DNA of 55,143 nucleotides from an uncultured Alphaproteobacteria bacterium (GCA_949297665.1 CASFTO010000076.1:1-55143), one strand, 5' to 3'; numbered from the stretch's first letter, positions 3 through 21,807 are shown. The notes: a model not told the origin generated them from the sequence alone. Translations and numbers: made by a program.

Positions 3-872
3 GCAGCTAGACACTACAATATTCCGGCAGCAGGCACTATGGCTCACTCTTTTATTATGAGTTACGAAAAAGAACTTGATGCGTTTAAGGCGTATATGCG
101 ACACAATCCATCTAATACCACTTTATTGGTTGATACATATGATACAAGACAAGGTATCCAAAATGCTATTCAAGCCTCACTTGATACAAAAATTCCGCTT
201 ATGGGTATTCGTATTGATTCCGGCGATTTGGCTTATTGGGGAAAAGAGGCGCGTCGGATGCTGGATGATGCAGGTTTTAACAAAACAAAACTGGTGGCTT
301 CCAATGATTTGGACGAGCATTTAATTGAAAATCTATTGTTGGTTCAGAAAGCACCTTACGACATTATGGCAGCCGGTACCAAACTGGTTACCGCTTATGA
401 CACCCCTGCCCTTGGTGGTGTTTTCAAAACAAAATCTTATTTAGGTAAGCCTAAAATTAAAGTCGCAGAAGGAAAAACTACTATTCCTGGTGCTACAAAC
501 GTTATCCGTATTGAGAAAAACGGACAATTTAACGGTGACATCATCTGCAAGGCTGAGGACGAAATTATTAAAGACGGAGAAATTTCTCGTAATCTCACTT
601 CGTATACGTTAGGTAGCACTAATCAATCTCGTATTACATTTGCTAAAGGAGAAAAAGCGCATTTACTCTTATCTCCGGTGGTTCGTGATGGAAAAATTAT
701 TGTCGAGCCTGAATTGGATTTACGCCTTCTGCAACAGCGAGGACACACTAATCTGGCAAAATTTGACGAGGCTTATAAAAGACTTGTTAATCCGCATGTT
801 TACGGCGTTGGTTTGGAAGCGGGATTATTTGCTCTGCAACAAAATTTAATTCAGGCGCATCGTACGATGTAA
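3..872 (+). CDS. pncB: Nicotinate phosphoribosyltransferase (5'-truncated by window edge)
   Basis: Frame is open from position 3 (..YNIPAAGTMAHS..); motifs GTMAHS, LVDTYD, GIRIDSGD, SNDLDE; adjacent to nadE. Confidence 0.9.
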   Translation, partial: AARHYNIPAAGTMAHSFIMSYEKELDAFKAYMRHNPSNTTLLVDTYDTRQGIQNAIQASLDTKIPLMGIRIDSGDLAYWGKEARRMLDDAGFNKTKLVASNDLDEHLIENLLLVQKAPYDIMAAGTKLVTAYDTPALGGVFKTKSYLGKPKIKVAEGKTTIPGATNVIRIEKNGQFNGDIICKAEDEIIKDGEISRNLTSYTLGSTNQSRITFAKGEKAHLLLSPVVRDGKIIVEPELDLRLLQQRGHTNLAKFDEAYKRLVNPHVYGVGLEAGLFALQQNLIQAHRTM

Positions 873-3854: not shown

Positions 3855-5186
3855 ATGAGTCCCGTTTATGGATATATCTTTAATTTATTTTTAGTTTTAT
3901 TTTTAGTTTTTTGTAATGCTTTTTTCGTTGTTTCTGAATTTGCGATTGTAAAAATCCGTCGCACTAAACTTGAAGAGTTGGCGCACGGAGGTAATAAATC
4001 TGCAAAAATCGCCCTAAAAATTAACGAACATATGAACACTTATCTAAGTGCAATTCAACTTGGTATTACTCTTGCCTCGTTGGGCTTAGGTTGGTTGGGT
4101 GAACCGGCAGTTTCGCGCTTGTTGGAAGATTTGTTCTCCGGTTTCTTTGCCGATAATAAAATCTTATTGCACTCTTTAAGTTTTGGTATTGCCTTTACCT
4201 TTATTACTTTATTGCACGTTGTGTTTGGTGAATTGGTGCCAAAGTCTATGGCTATTCAAGATACAGAACGCTATGCTTTGATTATTGCTCGTCCGCTCTA
4301 TACTTTTAATAAAATCTTTGCTCCGTTCATTTGGGTTTTTGACCATGTTACTATGTGGATTTTGAAACTTATGGGCGTTAAACAAGCTGACGAAAATGAA
4401 GATGCTCACTCCGAAGAAGAAATCAAATTAATTATTGATGCTTCGCAAAAAGGCGGCGTGATTGATGATACTGAAAGCGAAATTATCCAAAACGCTATCT
4501 GCTTTTCCGAAATTTCCGCTCACGAAATTATGATTCCTCGTCAGGAAATGAAATGTATTTATCAAAACAGCAGCTATAACGAAATTATGGAATTTGTTAA
4601 ACAACATAAACACACTCGTTTTCCGCTTTGCAATGGTGATAAAGACCAAATTATCGGTATGATTCATATTCGTGATTTGTTGGAGTGCAAAAACTCTCCG
4701 CACAAAGATATTTTGAGCAAAATTGTTCGTAATATTTTGTTTGTACCGGAAAATAAATCCATTTCAGAAATTTTACATGAAATGATGAAGAAGCGCATTC
4801 ATCTGGCCGTGGTTGTTGATGAATATGGCGGAACTGCAGGGCTTCTTTCTATGGAAGATATTTTGGAAGAGTTGGTTGGGGATATTCAAGATGAACATGA
4901 TGAAATCACAGATACTCCGGTTAAAAAAATCAATGAGAAAGTTTGTGAATTTGATGGTTTATACCTTGTTGAAGATGCCTACGATTGCTTAGAATTGCCT
5001 TATTGTGAACATGAAGAAAGCACTATGGGAGGATACGTTTTCAATCTTCTTGGGCGCGAACCGGTTGTCGGTGATCAGACCGAAGATGATTATTGTATCT
5101 ACGAAGTTCTTGAAGTTGATAATATGAGAATTACGCGTGTTAAAGCAACTGTTAAGGAATCTTGTGCTATGATTAGTGCAGAATAA
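3855..5186 (+). CDS. Hemolysin/CNNM-family protein (DUF21-CBS-CBS-CorC/HlyC), putative Mg/Co transport
   Basis: NAFFVVSEFAIV, QLGITLASLGLGWLGEP, GELVPKS, HSEEE, VVDEYGGTAG...EDILEELVGDIQDEHD. Confidence 0.92.
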   Translation: MSPVYGYIFNLFLVLFLVFCNAFFVVSEFAIVKIRRTKLEELAHGGNKSAKIALKINEHMNTYLSAIQLGITLASLGLGWLGEPAVSRLLEDLFSGFFADNKILLHSLSFGIAFTFITLLHVVFGELVPKSMAIQDTERYALIIARPLYTFNKIFAPFIWVFDHVTMWILKLMGVKQADENEDAHSEEEIKLIIDASQKGGVIDDTESEIIQNAICFSEISAHEIMIPRQEMKCIYQNSSYNEIMEFVKQHKHTRFPLCNGDKDQIIGMIHIRDLLECKNSPHKDILSKIVRNILFVPENKSISEILHEMMKKRIHLAVVVDEYGGTAGLLSMEDILEELVGDIQDEHDEITDTPVKKINEKVCEFDGLYLVEDAYDCLELPYCEHEESTMGGYVFNLLGREPVVGDQTEDDYCIYEVLEVDNMRITRVKATVKESCAMISAE

Positions 5187-5213
5187 AGTTTATGTTTCTG
5201 CAATCGTGGAGGG

Positions 5214-5756
5214 ATGATGATGCACTATAAGTCTGTGGGTATTTTAGCATTGGGAGCATTGGGGGTTCTTATTTCAAATGCTTTGGCTGTCGATAATGTT
5301 AAGACCAAAATGAAATACGGCGCTGAACGTTCTGCCATAGGGCAGATTAAAGCGACAATCGTTGCGCCGGTTTCCGCAACATCATCCAACGATTTACGCT
5401 TTGGTATGATTGTAAAAAATAATGCGGGCGATGTTACCGTTGATGAAGAAGGGAATCGGACAACAACCGGCCCAGGCTTGGCTACAAGCGGTTATTCTGC
5501 AGGCTCTATTCAACTAAGAGGACCTCGCGCGCAAGCTGTTTCTGTCGATATTCCCGAAGCGCATATTTATAATAACGATGATAACACCGTTAATGTGCAT
5601 TCTTTTACAACTAATCAAGATAACAGTAAGCTGATTACTCTAGATGCACAAAACGGCAAAGCCGATATTGATGTGGGTGCTTCGCTTAATATTTCTGATA
5701 CAGATACTCAAGGCGGGGCGCGTATGGGCGTTTATCGCGTACAGACTTCTTATTAG
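5214..5756 (+). CDS. DUF4402-type secreted pilin-like subunit (putative minor)
   Basis: Signal peptide; KATIVAPVS..DLRFG, VGASLNI, C-terminal Y; paralogous to the next two genes. Confidence 0.75.
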   Translation: MMMHYKSVGILALGALGVLISNALAVDNVKTKMKYGAERSAIGQIKATIVAPVSATSSNDLRFGMIVKNNAGDVTVDEEGNRTTTGPGLATSGYSAGSIQLRGPRAQAVSVDIPEAHIYNNDDNTVNVHSFTTNQDNSKLITLDAQNGKADIDVGASLNISDTDTQGGARMGVYRVQTSY

Positions 5757-5855
5757 GTAAAATATTTCCTTTTCTTTTGTTTTTTAAACTTATTTTTAAC
5801 ATTTTTTCTTTATAGTTACAGGTGAAATTATTTATTGCTTTTAGGGGAAAATGTT

Positions 5856-6359
5856 ATGAAAATGAATTTACTTTTAACGGTTGCCGTTTCCGTATTAGCT
5901 CTGGGCAGCTCGTCAGCTTTGGCTGCACAAGCAACAGGAAACGGAACTGTTACTGCGAAGATTGTTGCTCCGGTTAGTATTACGCAAGACCAAGGGCTTG
6001 ATTTTGGCACTATGATCTCACCTAGTAGTGCGACAACGGTAACCATTGCAGCCAGCAACGGAGCTCGTTCGTCATCTGATCCATCAATTTTGGTCGGAAC
6101 AAGTGAAGGTGCTGCCGGTAGTTTTGAAATTACTGGAGCAGATGGTCAAAGTGTTAATGTTACTTTGCCAAGTCAGGTTAAATTAACAGGTACCCCGGAT
6201 GGGGAGATGACTGTGGATAATTTTGTTTCTAATAAGGGGACCACGTTTACTCTTGAGGGAGGATCAGCTATAATGCAAGTTGGTGCTGATTTGAATGTCG
6301 GAGCAAGTCAAGCAGAAGGTGATTATTCTGGATCTTACGAGGTTACGGTCAGTTACTAA
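5856..6359 (+). CDS. DUF4402-type secreted pilin-like subunit (putative major)
   Basis: SD AGGGGA; signal peptide ..ALA-A; TAKIVAPVSI..GLDFG, VGADLNV, GDYSGSYEVTVSY end; rich in G/S/T/A. Confidence 0.8.
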   Translation: MKMNLLLTVAVSVLALGSSSALAAQATGNGTVTAKIVAPVSITQDQGLDFGTMISPSSATTVTIAASNGARSSSDPSILVGTSEGAAGSFEITGADGQSVNVTLPSQVKLTGTPDGEMTVDNFVSNKGTTFTLEGGSAIMQVGADLNVGASQAEGDYSGSYEVTVSY

Positions 6360-6391
6360 TTTTGATTTAGTTTATTATTAGGTTGTTGCAA

Positions 6392-6548
6392 AAAAAATGA
6401 CCCTTTTTTATCAATATAAATAGATTTCTCCCCAAAGCAATTAAGATTAATTTTTTATTAACAAGAATAACTACTTATTCTAATTGACTTAAAATCACTT
6501 TCTAAACTGTTTCAACGAGACCCTGCTGATAAAAAAGGGTCGTTTTTT
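6392..6548. repeat. 22-bp inverted repeat pair (6392-6413 and 6527-6548) flanking a 113-bp spacer
   Basis: AAAAAATGACCCTTTTTTATCA versus TGATAAAAAAGGGTCGTTTTTT: 21/22 complementary, the mismatch being a U-G wobble on the + strand. Confidence 0.9.
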
Positions 6549-6558
6549 GTGTGTCGAT

Positions 6559-7500
6559 ATGTTTAGAAAATGTGTTAGTTTTTTTATATTTTGTGCCTTT
6601 TTTAAAGCCTCTGTCGCGTGGGCGGCTGTCGGTACGTCTGTATTACAGAATATAAATTTTGGGACCTATATTCAAACAAATAATGTTTCCAATGTTGTGC
6701 TTTCGACAGATAATAATATCAATTACTCCTCTTTAACGTCCGTTTCATCGGGAAATTCCGGTTTAATTAATTTTCAGGGTGATATTGATGATTCTGCTAT
6801 CGGACAATCTGAAAATATTACTATTCAGGATATTGGGCAAATTACGTTTCCTGATGCAAATGGTTGTACAATTACTTTATCTAATCTAACAGCCAACCCT
6901 AGTACTTTTCAGTTTTCTCGTGAAGGAGGTTGGTATGGGACTTCTCAAGATGTCTATTTCGGAGCGACAATCTCGATTGAAGGTTTTTGCAAAGAGGGAC
7001 AATATAATACTACAGTTGCATTACCTTTTGAGGTTTATCGACATGGCCTTATCGGTGGTGGTGAAACTACTACAGAATATGTTTCCCTTACCTTTTCTGT
7101 TGCTTTTCAGGATATTATCGGCATTACAAAAAAAGCTGATTTAGACTTTGGCTCAATGATTTCTCCTTCGTCCGATGTTACAGTTAATGTTTCCTATAAT
7201 GGACAGAGATCATCATCCGGAAATATTTTTTTATTAAATGACACACCTGTTTCAGCTGCCCTTTTTACAATCGATGGACAAGTCGGAAGAACAGTTTATC
7301 TCGAACTTCCAAGTGATGTTCTTATCTATAATGACCAGGGCAGTTCTTTGACTGTGAATAATTTTGAATCCAGTACAGGTAAAACTTTTGTTTTAGATGC
7401 AGGTTCAGTTGATGCTTATATCGGTGCGACATTAAATGTTATCGGAAATGCTGATGCAGGTGAATATTCCGGTACTTATACGGTGAGGGTTTCTTATTAG
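6559..7500 (+). CDS. Two-domain DUF4402-type protein, putative tip adhesin
   Basis: Signal peptide ..AWA-A; N-domain with a Cys pair (INFG...FGATISI); C-domain DLDFGSMISPSS...GEYSGTYTVRVSY closely similar to the 5856 subunit. Confidence 0.75.
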   Translation: MFRKCVSFFIFCAFFKASVAWAAVGTSVLQNINFGTYIQTNNVSNVVLSTDNNINYSSLTSVSSGNSGLINFQGDIDDSAIGQSENITIQDIGQITFPDANGCTITLSNLTANPSTFQFSREGGWYGTSQDVYFGATISIEGFCKEGQYNTTVALPFEVYRHGLIGGGETTTEYVSLTFSVAFQDIIGITKKADLDFGSMISPSSDVTVNVSYNGQRSSSGNIFLLNDTPVSAALFTIDGQVGRTVYLELPSDVLIYNDQGSSLTVNNFESSTGKTFVLDAGSVDAYIGATLNVIGNADAGEYSGTYTVRVSY

Positions 7501-7521
7501 TGGTTTGAAAGGAAGGCTATT

Positions 7522-8301
7522 ATGATTAAAAAAATTATAAAACTTAATTTATTGTTGATGCTTATTCCTCAGTTGGTTTGGGCGAATATTTCCGTCTTTC
7601 CGTATAGTATCGATTTTGATGCTAATTCTAATAAACGCGTCCAAAATATTCGTATTATAAATACTTCTCAAGAAACGCAAACTTATCGCGTCTCCTTTGT
7701 GAATTTTACACAAGATGATAATGGAAAACTTACTGAAGTAAAAGAAAATTCTCCCTTTTACGCTGATAAATATTTGTCGTGGTCGCCACGTCAGTTTACT
7801 CTGAAACCTAATGAAGTGCAAACTATCAATGTTGCTCGAAAAAGTTTGGCGCAGGCTCCTGACGGCGAATTTGTTTCTCACTTGAAAGTGAGCGAGGTTC
7901 TATTGGGGGCTCCTAAAATCAAAAATAAAGAAGGATCTCAATCTGATACGATATCTATGCAACTGCGCGCTCTGTTTGCTATTACTATCCCTGTTACAAT
8001 TACTAAAGGGGATAATCTCTATAGCAAAACTGAGGTGCTTAGCTATAAGTTGCTCCCTGATAATAAACTTAATATCGTTTTCAAACGGTTGGGTAATAAA
8101 TCCTCGCGCTTTAACGTTGTTATTGCTGACGAAAAAGATAAAAATATCGGACGCGTCAATGGTATAAAAATCTATATGTCGACAGATACTCTTTCTGTTA
8201 ACATACCTTTAGATAAAAATGCTCAAACTCATAATGCGGTCTTGAAATTGGAAGATGCTAAAACGAAAGAAGAAATATTGCGGAAGGCTTTACATATTTA
8301 G
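7522..8301 (+). CDS. Periplasmic fimbrial chaperone (PapD-like fold)
   Basis: Signal peptide; ISVFP, IRIINT...TYRVSF, SPRQFTLKPNEVQTI, DGEF.SHL, ITIPVTI, RLGN.S. Confidence 0.82.
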   Translation: MIKKIIKLNLLLMLIPQLVWANISVFPYSIDFDANSNKRVQNIRIINTSQETQTYRVSFVNFTQDDNGKLTEVKENSPFYADKYLSWSPRQFTLKPNEVQTINVARKSLAQAPDGEFVSHLKVSEVLLGAPKIKNKEGSQSDTISMQLRALFAITIPVTITKGDNLYSKTEVLSYKLLPDNKLNIVFKRLGNKSSRFNVVIADEKDKNIGRVNGIKIYMSTDTLSVNIPLDKNAQTHNAVLKLEDAKTKEEILRKALHI

Positions 8302-11242
8302 TTTTGTTCTTTTGGTCTTTGCTTTATTCGGTATTGCTCCGGCAAGAACTCAAGACTTAACTGATTATAGTAATGATCCTTTGATTTTGGAACCAATTAT
8401 CCAAGGATTTAATTTGGATGATTATGCTTACGTTTATGAAAAAACTAATAAGCAATATATTTCTTTGCCACAGATTTCTGCTTATCTCGGTCTAAAATAT
8501 GTCTTAAACCAAAATACGCTGAAACTCTGGTGGGTTAATGATGAAGATGCGCCGTTCGTTATTGATTTGGGGCAAAAAACTGTTGAGTATAACGGACTTA
8601 AAACACCTTTCGCTTCTGATGAAATGCTGGTTGTCGATGATACGATCTTCTTTGCCGCGGATTTTTATATTCAGTATCTAGATGTCAAAATTAAAATCGA
8701 TAGACTTAATATGCAACTCGTCGTAACCGCTGATAAAGATTTGCCGACGACGGTTAAACGTAGAGCCGAAAAAAAGAGAGGGAAAAATAATTTTTCGTTT
8801 AAACGCGATAGTTTTAAAAATTATGAATTCGATAATCGTTGGTTCGGAGAACCGGTTGTCGATTTGACACTCGGTAAAGGATGGAATTATTATGATTCTA
8901 TCGGGAAGTCTTCTAATAGTGATTCTTATTCCGTCAATGTGGCTATGCTTGCCGCCGGACTTGATGTTAATGCTTATATCTTTGGGGATTCTTATAATGA
9001 TAGGAATCCAAGGGTTAGATTAACCGGAAGCCGAACTTTTTTGGATGAACCGGGGAATGCTCTTAATCTTAAAACATTAAAGGTCGGTGATATCAGCGGG
9101 TTGAGCTCGTCTTATTTTGCTGATGCTTCTTTTGGTCGCGGTGCCGCCGTCAGCAGCTTCAAAAACTTGGTTATGTCTGCTAATAAAACAATTGATATTA
9201 CTGGTCCGCTTCTGGATGGGTGGCAAGTTGAACTCTATTGGAATGAACAGCTCGTCGGTTATCGCCAAAGCGGGGTTAATGGACAATATAACTTCCCTGA
9301 TATTCCGGTTTCTTATGGCTTAAATACTTTTAAACTCGTATTTTATGGACCTTATGGTGAAACAAGAACTGAATATGAACGCTATTACTCCGGTACAAGT
9401 CCGGTGAAAAAAGGTGAATTTGGTTATACCGCAGCGGCTTATCAGCCTTATCGCTATTTGATTGAAGACAATGAACCTTTTACTTATAGCGGTGATGATA
9501 CCCCTATTCTCGATTTTACCGGTTATTACGGTGCTACGGACCACTTAACGCTTATGGGTGGGTTTACGCAAACACCCGATGCGGAAACCGGTACGGAAAC
9601 TCAACAATTTGCTATGGCCGGTGCTCAATTGGCTGTTAAAGGTAGCTCAATTCAATATAACTTGGAACAAAATCTGGATACCGATGATTTTGCTCATCAC
9701 GCCGAATGGCAAGGCGATGTCTATATCGGTACAATTTATGCAGGCTATGATAAATTTAACGGAATTCATTCGCCTATCTCTTTTTATGGTGATGAATATT
9801 TGGATGAACAATTTGAAACCAGATTATCCGGTATGTTGCCTTGGCGCGTCCCTTATTATTTAAGTTGGAGACAAGGAACGCTCGAAAGTGATGAAACTCC
9901 CTTTAATAATGTTACGGCTCGACTTTCTAAACAATTAATGAATAGCCTGAATTTGACTTTGGAAGATAGCTATTATGATTACAATAATTCACAAGGCGCA
10001 TATAATGCCGTCCGCTTGGGAGCTTATAAATGGTGGGGGGACTTCTCTTCGGAATCTTGGCTGACCTATGAAACTTCTCCGGAAAGTCGCTTTACGGAAT
10101 TTTCTACTCGCTTGGATTGGAGAACCGGTCGTAATACTTATCTTTCCGGTAAATATACGCGCAACTTGATTGAAGATATGGATTATTTCTCTTTTTCCGG
10201 TGGGCAAATCTTTCCTTTTGGCGGTCTTACGGCTACGCTTGAGTTTGATAGAGATTTTAATATAAGCTCTTATCTCACTTATAATATCAGTCTTGCTAAA
10301 GCTCCAGATGCAATGGATGTTATTACTTCCGCTAATTCAAAATTGAGCAATACCGGTACTATGTATGTTAAATTAACGGATGAAGAAGGCGAACCTCTTG
10401 AAGGTATCGGGCTTAATGCGAACGGATTGGAAAAAGAAATTTATACCGATGAAAATGGGGTGGCTGTTTTAACGGATTTGCAGACTTATGAAAAAACCGT
10501 TCTTAATGTTGACACCGAAACTCTTATTGATGTTGCTTTGCAACCCCTTTATGATGAGAAAAAACTGGTTTTGAGACCGGGTACTATTCGGACGGTCGCT
10601 ATTCCCTTTATTCATCGGGGGGCTATCGAAGGAAAACTTGCAAATGCCAGCGATAGCAGAATGTTTGGCTACCAAATCTCCGCCTTTGATAAAGATAATA
10701 AAGAAATTGTTTCAACTTTTGCCGATATTGAGGGGTCCTTTATTTTAGATGCTATTCCTTATGGAAATTATAAAGTAATTGTATCTAAAGACGGACATCA
10801 GTTGGCAGAGCTCCAAGATATTAAAGTTGATGATGTATCGGTTTATATAAAAGATGAAATTGAATTAGATACTCGTGCTTTTGACTTTTTTGAAGCGCAA
10901 GATAGTCAAAACGAACTGGATTATTTTGAAGAACAGCATGACCTTGGATATAATAATGTTGATTATAGAAATAGAGATTTTCCAATCGATATTCCTCAGG
11001 CTGTGCTTAACCCTCAGGACGAAACGCCTCGAATTCAAATTGAAGAAATTGAGAAAGATATCTTTGTTCAAACTAAAGCTCCTGTATACGCTTCAGTTGC
11101 TTCGATACAATCGTTCGAGCGCTATTCTACCATACAAGATATTGAAGGGGATATTTTTTCACCTGCTGAAGGTAATTTGACTACGGTACTTCGTGATCTG
11201 CAGTACAATTCTTCGGCTTTATCCGAAGTTTTAGAGCATTAG
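8255..11242 (+). CDS. Large outer-membrane usher-like protein with C-terminal carboxypeptidase-regulatory-like Ig domains
   Basis: 995 aa with signal peptide; plug-like segment GWQVELYWN..L.....NGQYNF.DIPV.YGLN.F.LVFYGPYGE; amphipathic beta strands; C-terminal TDENG and ADIEGSF..DAIPYGNY; follows chaperone gene; start uncertain. Confidence 0.75.
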   Translation: MLKRKKKYCGRLYIFSFVLLVFALFGIAPARTQDLTDYSNDPLILEPIIQGFNLDDYAYVYEKTNKQYISLPQISAYLGLKYVLNQNTLKLWWVNDEDAPFVIDLGQKTVEYNGLKTPFASDEMLVVDDTIFFAADFYIQYLDVKIKIDRLNMQLVVTADKDLPTTVKRRAEKKRGKNNFSFKRDSFKNYEFDNRWFGEPVVDLTLGKGWNYYDSIGKSSNSDSYSVNVAMLAAGLDVNAYIFGDSYNDRNPRVRLTGSRTFLDEPGNALNLKTLKVGDISGLSSSYFADASFGRGAAVSSFKNLVMSANKTIDITGPLLDGWQVELYWNEQLVGYRQSGVNGQYNFPDIPVSYGLNTFKLVFYGPYGETRTEYERYYSGTSPVKKGEFGYTAAAYQPYRYLIEDNEPFTYSGDDTPILDFTGYYGATDHLTLMGGFTQTPDAETGTETQQFAMAGAQLAVKGSSIQYNLEQNLDTDDFAHHAEWQGDVYIGTIYAGYDKFNGIHSPISFYGDEYLDEQFETRLSGMLPWRVPYYLSWRQGTLESDETPFNNVTARLSKQLMNSLNLTLEDSYYDYNNSQGAYNAVRLGAYKWWGDFSSESWLTYETSPESRFTEFSTRLDWRTGRNTYLSGKYTRNLIEDMDYFSFSGGQIFPFGGLTATLEFDRDFNISSYLTYNISLAKAPDAMDVITSANSKLSNTGTMYVKLTDEEGEPLEGIGLNANGLEKEIYTDENGVAVLTDLQTYEKTVLNVDTETLIDVALQPLYDEKKLVLRPGTIRTVAIPFIHRGAIEGKLANASDSRMFGYQISAFDKDNKEIVSTFADIEGSFILDAIPYGNYKVIVSKDGHQLAELQDIKVDDVSVYIKDEIELDTRAFDFFEAQDSQNELDYFEEQHDLGYNNVDYRNRDFPIDIPQAVLNPQDETPRIQIEEIEKDIFVQTKAPVYASVASIQSFERYSTIQDIEGDIFSPAEGNLTTVLRDLQYNSSALSEVLEH

Positions 11243-11340
11243 AAAGCAAATAAATTATATTTTGAATACAAATAGCTCGTTTCATGTTATACAACGAATA
11301 TCTTATAACCCATAAGCTCTATTTTAATTTTGTTTTCATA

Positions 11341-11370
11341 AAGAAAGCAGGAAAACCTCCTGCTTTCTTT
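11341..11370. terminator. Bidirectional intrinsic terminator
   Basis: AAGAAAGCAGGA/TCCTGCTTTCTT stem between convergent genes. Confidence 0.75.
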
Positions 11371-11388
11371 GATTTTATGGTTGATACC

Positions 11389-12132
11389 TTATTCCGGTAA
11401 CAAAGGTGTTGCATATTCCATATACGGATCGTCTTGATCTGAAGTTAGCGTTAAACTGCCGTCTTCATTTTTCTCCTTTGCGTTGATTTGGTTATATGCA
11501 TATTCTTCAAAATTATTTAAATCAGCCTTCTGGGCGCCATCCAAATAAATGTTCTTAATTGTAACTTTTCCGGGATTGGAATCAAAGTCTATGCGAACTC
11601 TATATACTTTATCCGATGGGATTACAATACTGTATTTGTGCGCTCCGGCTTCACCTTGATATTCTACAACATGGCTCGCATCATACCAAACTTCGCGTTC
11701 TACCGTATAGAAAATTTGATAATTAAGAGCTTTGTCTGTTGTGGTTTCAAAGGTTAATACAGAATTTTGGGGCTCAATTTCAATAACTTCTTTGGTTATC
11801 TCCGGCTTACTTTCCCCAACAACAACTTCTTCAACCACTTCCTCTTGAGGTGTTGTTTCCTCCGCTGTAACAGATGGTTGAGGTTCTTCTGTTTCTGCTT
11901 TCGGTTCCTCTGTTATTGCTGCTTCTTCTATTTCAGCTTTCGGAGCTTCCTCTTTAGCTTTCATATCCTCCTTTATCGGTAATTTTTCTTCTACCTTAAT
12001 AGGTGCAGTAGGCTTTTGGGTTTCCTCTTTTTTACCACCAAATACAGATGCCAGCAACATAATTGCAACCAAAACAATTATTCCGGCTACAATTTTTTGC
12101 TTCTTGGTAATCTTAACTTCTTTATCTTTCAT
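11389..12132 (-). CDS. Hypothetical membrane-anchored protein (TM, E/P/T-rich linker, beta-sandwich domain)
   Basis: N-terminal TM, acidic low-complexity linker, C-terminal YQIFY...RVRIDFD..PG.VTIKNI (carbohydrate-binding-module-like). Confidence 0.75.
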   Translation of the reverse strand: MKDKEVKITKKQKIVAGIIVLVAIMLLASVFGGKKEETQKPTAPIKVEEKLPIKEDMKAKEEAPKAEIEEAAITEEPKAETEEPQPSVTAEETTPQEEVVEEVVVGESKPEITKEVIEIEPQNSVLTFETTTDKALNYQIFYTVEREVWYDASHVVEYQGEAGAHKYSIVIPSDKVYRVRIDFDSNPGKVTIKNIYLDGAQKADLNNFEEYAYNQINAKEKNEDGSLTLTSDQDDPYMEYATPLLPE

Positions 12133-20246: not shown

Positions 20247-20825
20247 ATGAAAAAGTTATGTATTTTTGTTGCATGTATCACAGCGTTATGTTCTTGTGAA
20301 CCAATATTTAACGGTAGTAATGAAATCGCTTCCAGTAATACAGATAAAACCACTCAAAAGGACATACAGAGTAGCACAAGCATATCTCGACAAGATTTCA
20401 GTATTTCCAACATTGTGAACAATGACACAGTTGTTGCGTCAATGCTCGTACAAGGCCGTAATTCAGGTTCTTCTCCGAGTGTTGCTTATGTACTTCTTGC
20501 CAGCGGTAGAGTATTGTGTTTTGACAAAGCTGTTACTTCTGCACCATTTACGCTAAAAGAAGCCAAAATCCTTTTGGAGGCACAAACACCGAATAATCGT
20601 GCTTATAAACATTTATCTTCACACAAAGGTTCTGTTGTGGAGACATTGATTGCTCATGGACGTAATTCTTCTGCTTCTCCAAGTGTCGCTTATGTTCTCT
20701 ATTCAAATGGTCGTGTAGTGTGCTTTAGCAAAGCTGCTATTACAAAGCCATTTACTCTTGAAGAAGCTAAAATCCTCTTAAAGGCTAAGTCTCAAGGTAA
20801 ATTAGTCTATAATAGCGCTGATTAA
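20247..20825 (+). CDS. Hypothetical lipoprotein with an internal two-copy domain
   Basis: MKK + hydrophobic stretch + LCSC lipobox; residues 61-113 and 129-181 are duplicates. Confidence 0.8.
   Translation: MKKLCIFVACITALCSCEPIFNGSNEIASSNTDKTTQKDIQSSTSISRQDFSISNIVNNDTVVASMLVQGRNSGSSPSVAYVLLASGRVLCFDKAVTSAPFTLKEAKILLEAQTPNNRAYKHLSSHKGSVVETLIAHGRNSSASPSVAYVLYSNGRVVCFSKAAITKPFTLEEAKILLKAKSQGKLVYNSAD
20427..20789 (+). repeat. Intragenic duplication (20427-20585 and 20631-20789; 68-codon period)
   Basis: GRNSGSSPSVAYVLLASGRVLCFDKA..PFTLKEAKILL versus GRNSSASPSVAYVLYSNGRVVCFSKA..PFTLEEAKILL. Confidence 0.9.
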
Positions 20826-21210: not shown

Positions 21211-21252
21211 TGCGTTAGTTTAATATTATTGTTTCACTTAAATTTTACAATT

Positions 21253-21807
21253 ATGGATAAGGATAAGATTAAAGATTTTTTTGAATCATTCATAGGTACA
21301 TGTCGTATAGTTGTCCCTGCGCTCATTTTTACGTTTGGGTTTATTTATCTAGATACTAAACTGAAAGAGCAACGAGAGATTGAAAATCCAGGGTATTATA
21401 TCTTTGCAGTTAAAGAAAATCATAAATCTGAACGTCTGTTAGATTGGGCGCCCATGGATTCAGTAAAATCCTATTTTGAAGCATCGGCTATTTCTTCTAG
21501 TGGATATTCCCATTCTCTTTTTTATTGTTTGTTAAAAAGCGGAAATGTGGCTATTTTCTGCCAGAAAGGCATAGATTTTCTTGATATATTACCATATACT
21601 CCTGAAGTAGCTTTTCTTATTTTAGCTACAAAAAATGATTCTACTTTAGTGAGTGTTGAGGATTTTTCTGAACGGGTTAAACAATCTGTTTTATCTTCAG
21701 CTTCTGAAAAAAAAGAACCTTTGCCTCAGCAAGACGATGAAGATGACGCTGTTGATATAATTAGGACTTATATGCAAACTACCGGAAATGGCAATGTTCC
21801 TTTTTAG
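21253..21807 (+). CDS. Hypothetical membrane-anchored protein with one copy of the domain duplicated in 20247-20825
   Basis: TM near N-terminus; SHSLFYCLLKSGNVAIFCQKG...PYTPEVAFLILA; own promoter and terminator. Confidence 0.7.
   Translation: MDKDKIKDFFESFIGTCRIVVPALIFTFGFIYLDTKLKEQREIENPGYYIFAVKENHKSERLLDWAPMDSVKSYFEASAISSSGYSHSLFYCLLKSGNVAIFCQKGIDFLDILPYTPEVAFLILATKNDSTLVSVEDFSERVKQSVLSSASEKKEPLPQQDDEDDAVDIIRTYMQTTGNGNVPF

Follow-up and report, generated by a model that had tools for sequence, protein, structure and literature searches.

Five genes on the plus strand between positions 5214 and 11242 of a 55,143-nucleotide stretch from an uncultured Alphaproteobacteria bacterium (GCA_949297665.1, CASFTO010000076.1; the whole stretch is called the window below) raise the question of whether they make a pilus and, if so, how that pilus relates to the known kinds. 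Chaperone-usher pili are textbook adhesion organelles of Gram-negative bacteria, and surveys of them rely on the Usher and PapD models of Pfam. A preliminary description of the window had read the five genes as a non-canonical fimbrial system of the chaperone-usher type, built from DUF4402 subunits and served by an usher unlike FimD or PapC. By open reading frame (ORF) calling, the genes encode three DUF4402 proteins, a chaperone-like protein of 259 amino acids and a large protein of 995 amino acids. All five proteins have a basic/hydrophobic, signal-peptide-like N-terminus by eye, and all three DUF4402 proteins score above the curated cut-off of the Pfam model (PF14352, 25.2 bits; Table 1), so that the layout first described, five co-oriented exported genes with two single-domain paralogs and one two-domain paralog, is confirmed. 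In our analysis it is quite probable that the locus is a complete, very diverged chaperone-usher fibre system, together with a segment that we read as a phase-variation switch.

The Pfam Usher model (PF00577) did not match the 995-amino-acid protein at E ≤ 0.1; the best match of this model in the whole genome (E 0.03, 32 positions) lay inside the gene of this protein, whose sole Pfam match was CarboxypepD_reg at residues 791-860. PF00577 was found in three of 34 homologues (best E 1.9e-6), and searches of PDB sequences, with single proteins and with a profile of the 34 homologues, returned no usher. As a reference set we used 10 SCPU loci of Pseudomonadota, in which PF00577 is matched by each of the 10 ushers and PapD_N by each of the 10 chaperones; profiles of this set match CupE (8cio, 1.4e-32), CsuA/B (2.4e-24), CsuC (1.9e-52) and FimD (2.4e-52) in the PDB, and also CsuE and PapC. 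Compared by hhalign with the 10 archaic (Csu-type) ushers, the family of the 995-amino-acid protein scored 96.2-96.9% over about 600 columns, and the controls scored 0.1% (reversed) and 0.0-4.6% (cross-controls). In the profile alignment, W323-E369 pairs with the motif '..VdlYvNn.....v..GPF.i..lP' of the reference ushers, and from this sequence correspondence we take the region as the plug.

The AlphaFold model of the protein (predicted local distance difference test, pLDDT, 75.6; predicted template modelling score, pTM, 0.58) is beta-rich, as had been expected, and has six long strands, an insert of six short strands after the sixth, and eighteen further long strands (Table 1). PapC and FimD have a 24-strand barrel with the plug between strands 6 and 7. 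When the model was compared with the PDB by Foldseek, all 16 of the rows listed at ranks 1-17 were FimD or PapC (E 1.9e-28 to 3.5e-14, TMt 0.48-0.58, 510-940 aligned columns), and the best non-usher row had an E value of 8.9e-10. As modelled, the 995-amino-acid protein is an outer-membrane usher, made up of an N-terminal domain, a barrel into which a plug is inserted, and a pair of C-terminal domains. Two points weigh against this reading, namely the pTM of just 0.58 and the counting of the strands from the DSSP line, not from barrel closure. The earlier view that the usher does not resemble FimD and PapC thus stands for its sequence and fails for its predicted fold; since the latter is clearly FimD/PapC-like, we regard the locus as a very diverged chaperone-usher machine and not as a non-canonical architecture. 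Among the homologues, two from Elusimicrobiota (P0057 and P0062) carry an OmpA (peptidoglycan-binding) domain where the window usher has its acidic tail, and a domain like the N-terminal one of copper amine oxidases was matched in 9 of the 34.

We reconstructed a tree of 46 usher rows: 14 classical ushers, 10 archaic ones, four with intermediate PF00577 scores and, from the window family, 18 of its 34 rows. The window family formed a single clade (support 100), whose stem measured 2.82 changes per column, and fell outside the archaic clade (support 97), nesting in neither the archaic nor the classical ushers; note that long branches meet in this tree, and that two classical rows (L091 and L092) are very long-branched and possibly mis-called ORFs. 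The 'intermediate' ushers L099-L101 were considered as a bridge and rejected, their join being weak (support 82-85, with a long-branch warning) and their gene neighbours of the archaic type. In profile comparisons, the window family matched the archaic ushers at E 2.2e-9 and 12 classical ushers at 94.0% (E 1.4e-7), and the archaic and classical ushers matched each other at 100% (E 8.7e-61), which places the window family further from both groups than they are from each other. From these comparisons we read the locus as a deep branch of the chaperone-usher pathway. It is apparently unstudied, as first supposed: the open-access literature searched held no paper on DUF4402, PF14352 or IPR025514, and nothing there on chaperone-usher classes was tied to the DUF4402 usher family.

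The family is not confined to this genome. A second DUF4402 locus, in G119, an unrelated genome from a sample of the phylum, has a 965-amino-acid usher found by the family profile (7e-75) and missed by the PF00577 search, which did find the archaic usher of the same genome. Most of the usher relatives belong to uncultured Alphaproteobacteria of gut and rumen; others were found in Elusimicrobiota, a Rickettsiales endosymbiont of a mayfly, a Hepatincolaceae symbiont of a tardigrade and Marinobacter (M. xestospongiae JCM 17469). Plasmids or chromids carry more distant homologues, with 22-29% identity, in Polaromonas, Pseudoalteromonas, Novosphingobium and Sphingopyxis. Plasmid pE5SP1 of Polaromonas sp. 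E5S keeps the same gene order, which RefSeq annotates as DUF4402, hypothetical, DUF4402, 'molecular chaperone' and 'carboxypeptidase-like regulatory domain-containing protein'. Of 121 genomes sampled evenly across the phylum, two (our own included) had DUF4402 above its cut-off, 10 had SCPU and 15 had PF00577.

The chaperone-like protein was likewise recognised through its family. Pfam gave a sub-threshold fn3_5 match only for the 259-amino-acid protein, and no PapD_N. Its family is large, with 1531 representative clusters at E ≤ 0.001, and PapD_N was matched at E ≤ 1 in 44 of 64 aligned members (best 1.4e-8). By hhalign the family scored 98.1% against Csu-type chaperones, and 97.5% after removal of the signal peptides, over 205-212 columns (reversed control, 0.1%). 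The family profile brought up weak PapD, FaeE, FimC and WxLIP rows only among PDB sequences, the PapD row being in part an alignment of signal peptides. Passages of a study of CsuC (PMC4654587) describe one proline (Pro59) as invariant across the chaperone superfamily and Arg89, Tyr116, Arg174 and Tyr196 as non-classical anchor and donor residues, with Arg89 of strand F1 serving to anchor the subunit's C-terminal carboxylate and Tyr116 at donor position P0. In our profile alignment, from which, and not from structure, these equivalences are taken, P89 of the window protein, present in 63 of the 64 members, aligns with Pro59 and the 'sPP' motif of the reference chaperones, the position of Arg89 is R in 48 members, N in nine and K in five, and that of Tyr116 is Y in 58. 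Against the assignment, the window protein itself has N103 and F117 at the latter two positions. By these profile comparisons, the 259-amino-acid protein is a member of a family related to PapD/CsuC-type periplasmic chaperones.

An alignment of 30 relatives of the single-domain subunits bore out the shared A.IVAP strand, L.FG motif and terminal G.Y.G.Y.V.V.Y strand of the preliminary description: F50, G51, G143, L146, G155, G159 and Y167 are invariant, and A34, I36, P39 and L48 are conserved at 90% or more. Neither window subunit contains Cys, as had been noted, and 28 of the 30 relatives have none after residue 25. Subunit 1 has the A.IVAPVS, L.FG and C-terminal ..Y.V..SY motifs with a longer N-terminal extension, and its sequence varies less than that of subunit 2 (90% identity to L035; ratio of nonsynonymous to synonymous substitution rates, dN/dS, 0.12); a minor pilin, an adaptor and a terminator are the candidates for its role. 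The identity of subunit 2 among relatives falls from 83% to 56%, and this variability, together with its operon position, makes it the probable major pilin. Mature subunit 2 starts at about residue 25, and its first 16 residues are proposed to be the donor strand.

Sequence searches of the PDB, with single proteins and with the subunit profile, gave no pilin and no solved DUF4402 relative. In the model of mature subunit 2 (pLDDT 92.7), residues 1-16 are free of strand; the strands begin with 17-22 and end with a short one at 140-142. Chaperone-usher pilus subunits made up 39 of the 41 rows listed by Foldseek, the best being Caf1 (E 1.9e-3 to 6e-3), and 49 of the 50 listed by VIA-align, at the top of which stood the pilin domain of PapG (Z 7.7, root-mean-square deviation 4.0, 105 residues) and CsuA/B (Z 7.7, 2.9, 106 residues); FimG, FimA, PapA and the PapG pilin domain matched the core at Z 6-7.7, and most VIA-align alignments began at model residue 13-15. 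The model thus shows a pilin-like core with the N-terminal strand free, and it supports a DUF4402 subunit consisting of a pilin-like beta-sandwich core and a conserved free N-terminal stretch of about 16 residues outside that core. By analogy with known pili, we infer donor-strand assembly of these subunits.

Several results weigh against the pilin reading of the subunits. The fold matches are middling, as the best Z (7.7) is below 8 and Foldseek gave no row at E ≤ 0.001. Mature single-domain DUF4402 proteins scored 53.9% against SCPU by hhalign over 32 columns, corresponding to the C-terminal strand, and the core alone scored 10.4%; the two-domain family scored 88.6% over 36 columns, again of the C-terminal strand only. 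A stronger DUF4402-SCPU profile match (95.2%, 96.3%) was rejected as mostly aligned signal peptides. In favour of the pilin reading, and of a possible distant kinship with SCPU, the nearest named clusters in the protein Atlas, with DUF4402 set aside, were all SCPU (score 0.88), which we treat as a lead only.

The two-domain protein differs from these subunits. It has a Cys pair in its N-terminal domain and a pilin-like C-terminal domain, and DUF4402 was matched in 40 of 40 of its relatives. From the signal peptide to L.FG there are about 12 residues, compared with about 26 in the single-domain subunits, and the protein is therefore without a candidate N-terminal donor strand, as tip subunits are. 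It is also hypervariable: it is 37% identical to its L035 counterpart where the usher keeps 94%, and across five relatives it is 37-45% identical (27-35% in the N-terminal domain) against 81-94% for the usher. Since dS is saturated for this gene, its dN/dS ratio is not to be trusted, and the contrast in identity is the finding. We regard the two-domain protein as a putative tip adhesin. A second, orphan two-domain DUF4402 gene (G000:C38, locus L003 1498-2472, minus strand; 324 amino acids, 27% identical to that of the window) has no chaperone or usher gene beside it and adjoins a tRNA-Phe gene (L003 1295-1370). Its contig also has one integrase-family match and three of the Resolvase family, and the gene may encode an alternative tip adhesin and lie on a genomic island.

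A further feature of the locus lies between the genes of subunit 2 and the two-domain protein, where two inverted repeats of 25 nucleotides (nt), 92% complementary, stand 113 nt apart. A scan of the 1.9-Mb genome (arms of at least 20 nt, spacers of 40-600) gave four inverted-repeat pairs of such kind in total, no other exact copy of the arm was found in the genome, and a scan of metagenome contigs with the arm gave just four unrelated single matches; four sequencing runs of one study, probably of DNA, contained short contigs of relatives only. The same element is present in L035, L039, L032, L056 and L059, with arms of 21-25 nt and a core of 102 or 113 nt. In local alignment to the core of L035, the window core scored 22 forward and 102 reversed, and the cores of the five relatives scored 62-113 forward and 20-22 reversed. 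When reverse-complemented, 6389-6551 aligned with the five relatives at 89% mean column identity, with the flanking genes collinear. That is, the segment has the opposite orientation in one of six genomes at the same locus. A sigma-70-like hexamer pair in the core (TTTAGA-18-TAGAAT, 9/12, minus strand, 6506..6477) is directed towards the adhesin, chaperone and usher genes in the relatives, and in the window it points the other way. These sequence features make the element a likely site-specific inversion switch for phase variation. A leader-like motif common to the region upstream of subunit 2 was rejected as not specific.

Some observations tell against a switch. The two orientations were seen between species-level genomes and not in one population; the promoter call is weak, with 25 promoter-like sites in the region where 20.5 are expected, and the -10 hexamer is not conserved in three of the five relatives. 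No gene is assigned as the cognate recombinase. The 55-kb window contains no recombinase or mobile-element gene, so that the recombinase must act in trans. In favour of a switch, the genome has 13 Resolvase-family and seven Phage_integrase-family matches, all on contigs other than that of the window. All six genomes with the switch share a single-copy small serine recombinase (G000:C90:114252-114878; at least 90% identical), but since eight genomes of the genus in which the usher was not found have orthologues of it too, co-occurrence does not discriminate, and it is a candidate only; no inverted repeat was found beside it.

The repeat might instead be a fixed RNA hairpin or attenuator, its orientation reflecting a single old inversion fixed in one lineage. 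Rfam had no match at E ≤ 1 in window positions 5000-7000. The predicted transcript of 6355-6560 would fold strongly (-48.6 kcal/mol, z -5.95) and a T-run follows the right arm in either orientation, and the lone divergent genome, the want of a nearby recombinase and the weak promoter evidence point the same way. On the other hand, an exact inversion bounded by repeats of 21-25 nt that are conserved in six species-level genomes is the signature of site-specific recombination. An unrelated, non-homologous pair of 25-nt inverted repeats (6095-6240, spacer 96 nt) occupies the same intergenic site before the two-domain gene in L036; switch-like elements may have arisen at this site more than once. 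The genome is also rich in small serine recombinases. We therefore hold the fixed hairpin to be rather unlikely and retain the inversion switch.

The small serine recombinases (about 196-212 amino acids; on C90, C38, C43 and C51) number five in the 1.9-Mb genome and one to four in each of five relatives, which, for so small a genome, suggests several DNA-inversion systems. The other three inverted-repeat pairs of the genome (C57:42055-42183, C73:2313-2578 and C74:1971-2541) have arms of 21-29 nt and spacers of 71-529 nt, and that on C74 lies about 1.2 kb from a tyrosine-recombinase match (C74:199-723).

Taken together, the usher fold, the chaperone profiles and the subunit core support the pilin, two-domain subunit, chaperone and usher reading that had been proposed, and by analogy with Csu, Fim and Pap the parts would work as follows. 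After Sec export, each subunit would be capped by the chaperone, which lends it a strand; at the usher, the subunit arriving next would displace this strand with its own N-terminal one, joining the subunits head to tail while the fibre is extruded. The two-domain protein, because it lacks an N-terminal strand, would be the first to enter and would become the adhesin at the tip, with subunit 2 forming the shaft and subunit 1 a minor subunit. Inversion of the 113-nt segment would control the adhesin, chaperone and usher genes, and the window assembly may show the OFF state, since the promoter-like hexamer pair points away from the downstream genes.

The same machine could make another product, a thin flexible polymer or a capsule-like coat of DUF4402 protein, as in the F1-type polyadhesin Caf1 or protein U of Myxococcus, with the two-domain protein as one more polymer unit. 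The place of Caf1 at the head of the Foldseek rows and the lack of Cys in the subunits would suit such a product, as would the thin, zigzag filaments that archaic relatives form according to parts of a published account (PMC9452303). A two-domain protein without an N-terminal strand, however, can take only the first, distal position in a donor-strand polymer, and its being the most variable protein of the locus fits a tip adhesin, so that we consider the polymer or coat improbable and keep to a fibre with an adhesive tip. That the locus is a decaying or silent remnant without present function is very improbable: the usher is held by just 16 of 36 genomes of the genus and the chaperone is substituted at two family-conserved positions, but all five reading frames are intact, dN/dS against the five relatives is 0.05-0.09 for the usher and chaperone, and the gene order is kept in 49 of 55 loci.

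In the same comparison dN/dS was 0.10-0.21 for subunit 1 and 0.25-0.37 for subunit 2. The chaperone gene adjoins the usher gene in 51 of the 55 related loci, an association beyond chance; 49 of those have a DUF4402 ORF, and 43 one of at least 240 amino acids, the size of a two-domain protein. The locus is real, complete and selectively maintained. A broader scheme, less likely than not, is that DUF4402 systems form a further deep chaperone-usher class whose ushers branched before the archaic/classical split. In the gut lineage, an inversion switch within the operon would let pilin synthesis run separately from production of the tip adhesin and assembly machine, close relatives would rapidly exchange the adhesin gene, and the orphan second adhesin gene would supply an alternative tip.

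The coordinates are summarized in Table 1; for the two-domain gene, ATG 6559 is a likelier start codon than 6547. Housekeeping genes flank the operon: upstream are those of Ogt and a CNNM/CorC transporter, downstream those of CTP synthase, SecG and TIM. A gene convergent with that of the usher (11389-12132, minus strand) encodes a 247-amino-acid protein, in which a membrane anchor at the N-terminus is joined by a linker rich in Glu, Lys and Pro to a C-terminal domain that has no Pfam match; its position is kept in nine related loci. Elsewhere in the window, two adjoining ORFs of equal length (192 amino acids; 20247-20825 and 21229-21807, plus strand) have no Pfam match.

Table 1. Features of the DUF4402 locus in the window (nucleotide positions) and segments of the predicted usher (residues)
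Feature	Position	Strand	Basis
DUF4402 subunit 1, single-domain	5214..5756	+	180 aa ORF; PF14352 E 1.2e-17, 65.2 bits
DUF4402 subunit 2, single-domain	5835/5856..6359	+	174/167 aa ORF; PF14352 E 2.9e-29, 102.8 bits
Inverted repeat, left arm	6389..6413	.	25 nt
Candidate invertible segment	6414..6526	.	113 nt between the arms
Inverted repeat, right arm	6527..6551	.	25 nt; end 8 nt 5' of ATG 6559
Two-domain DUF4402 protein	6547/6559..7500	+	317/313 aa; PF14352 E 2.6e-33, 115.9 bits, two stretches
PapD-like periplasmic chaperone (predicted)	7522..8301	+	259 aa ORF; family profile comparisons
Outer-membrane usher (predicted)	8255..11242	+	995 aa ORF; AlphaFold model, Foldseek, hhalign
Terminator-like hairpin 3' of the usher gene, between convergent genes	11339..11371	+	14-pair stem, then T-run
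Usher N-terminal domain, alpha/beta	residues about 43-159		AlphaFold model/DSSP
Usher barrel strands 1-6, long	residues 201-300		AlphaFold model/DSSP
Usher plug, six short strands	residues 312-379		AlphaFold model/DSSP
Usher barrel strands 7-24, eighteen long	residues 389-682		AlphaFold model/DSSP
Usher C-terminal domain 1 (CTD1), beta-sandwich	residues 701-772		AlphaFold model/DSSP
Usher C-terminal domain 2 (CTD2), beta-sandwich, CarboxypepD_reg-like	residues 777-858		AlphaFold model/DSSP, Pfam
Usher acidic low-confidence tail	residues 866-995		AlphaFold model; isoelectric point 4.05

If these readings hold, pili may be undercounted in censuses of gut, rumen, insect-symbiont and marine bacteria, because the usher family escapes the Pfam models, RefSeq labels the Polaromonas homologue by its carboxypeptidase-like regulatory domain and the chaperone family runs to 1531 clusters. 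The ushers lie outside the span of archaic plus classical ones, and a structure could reveal ancestral usher features. For the uncultured gut alphaproteobacterium itself, which has a small genome, the locus is a candidate for an organelle of attachment to the host. A hypervariable tip protein combined with a DNA flip-switch is what one would expect of surface structures that immunity or phages put under pressure.

Among known systems, the closest in parts are the archaic (sigma) pili, Csu of Acinetobacter baumannii (CsuA/B-A-B-C-D-E) and CupE of Pseudomonas aeruginosa. They have the same three kinds of part as the window: small subunits that are Cys-poor or SCPU-like, with an N-terminal donor strand (proposed in the window) and a C-terminal aromatic strand, together with a two-domain tip subunit (putative in the window); a PapD-like chaperone; and an usher. 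The profile scores against the archaic reference set (usher 96.2%, chaperone 97.5%) and the tie of CsuA/B as the best structural match of the subunit agree with this likeness. The window subunits, however, belong to DUF4402 and not to SCPU (PF05229), for which the genome has no match and which is absent from the 25 most frequent families for the 30 single-domain and the 40 two-domain relatives, and they lack the two Cys invariant in the SCPU reference set. The usher, missed by PF00577 where the reference archaic ushers were matched in 10 of 10 cases, has its own long branch outside the sigma-type ushers, and differs from archaic ones in its CarboxypepD_reg-like CTD2 and an extra acidic tail of 130 residues. 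The gene order differs too, as in Csu the gene of the two-domain subunit comes after the usher gene, whereas in the window it precedes the chaperone gene.

The classical Fim and Pap pili provide the best fold matches of the window usher, FimD and PapC (510-940 columns), while the window subunits fail the Fimbrial family (PF00419; one of 30 members, E 0.26). In the passages we used of a published account (PMC11316696), the fim switch, fimS, is a segment of 314 bp with 9-bp repeats; it contains the fimA promoter, and the tyrosine recombinases FimB and FimE invert it. The window element is shorter (113 nt) with longer repeats (25 nt), has no adjacent recombinase gene and a promoter that is a candidate only, and is placed within the operon, between the two pilin genes and those of the adhesin, chaperone and usher, whereas fimS lies upstream of the major pilin gene. 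What the window shares with fimS and with the invertons of gut bacteria is a short segment between inverted repeats in a fimbrial operon, found in either orientation.

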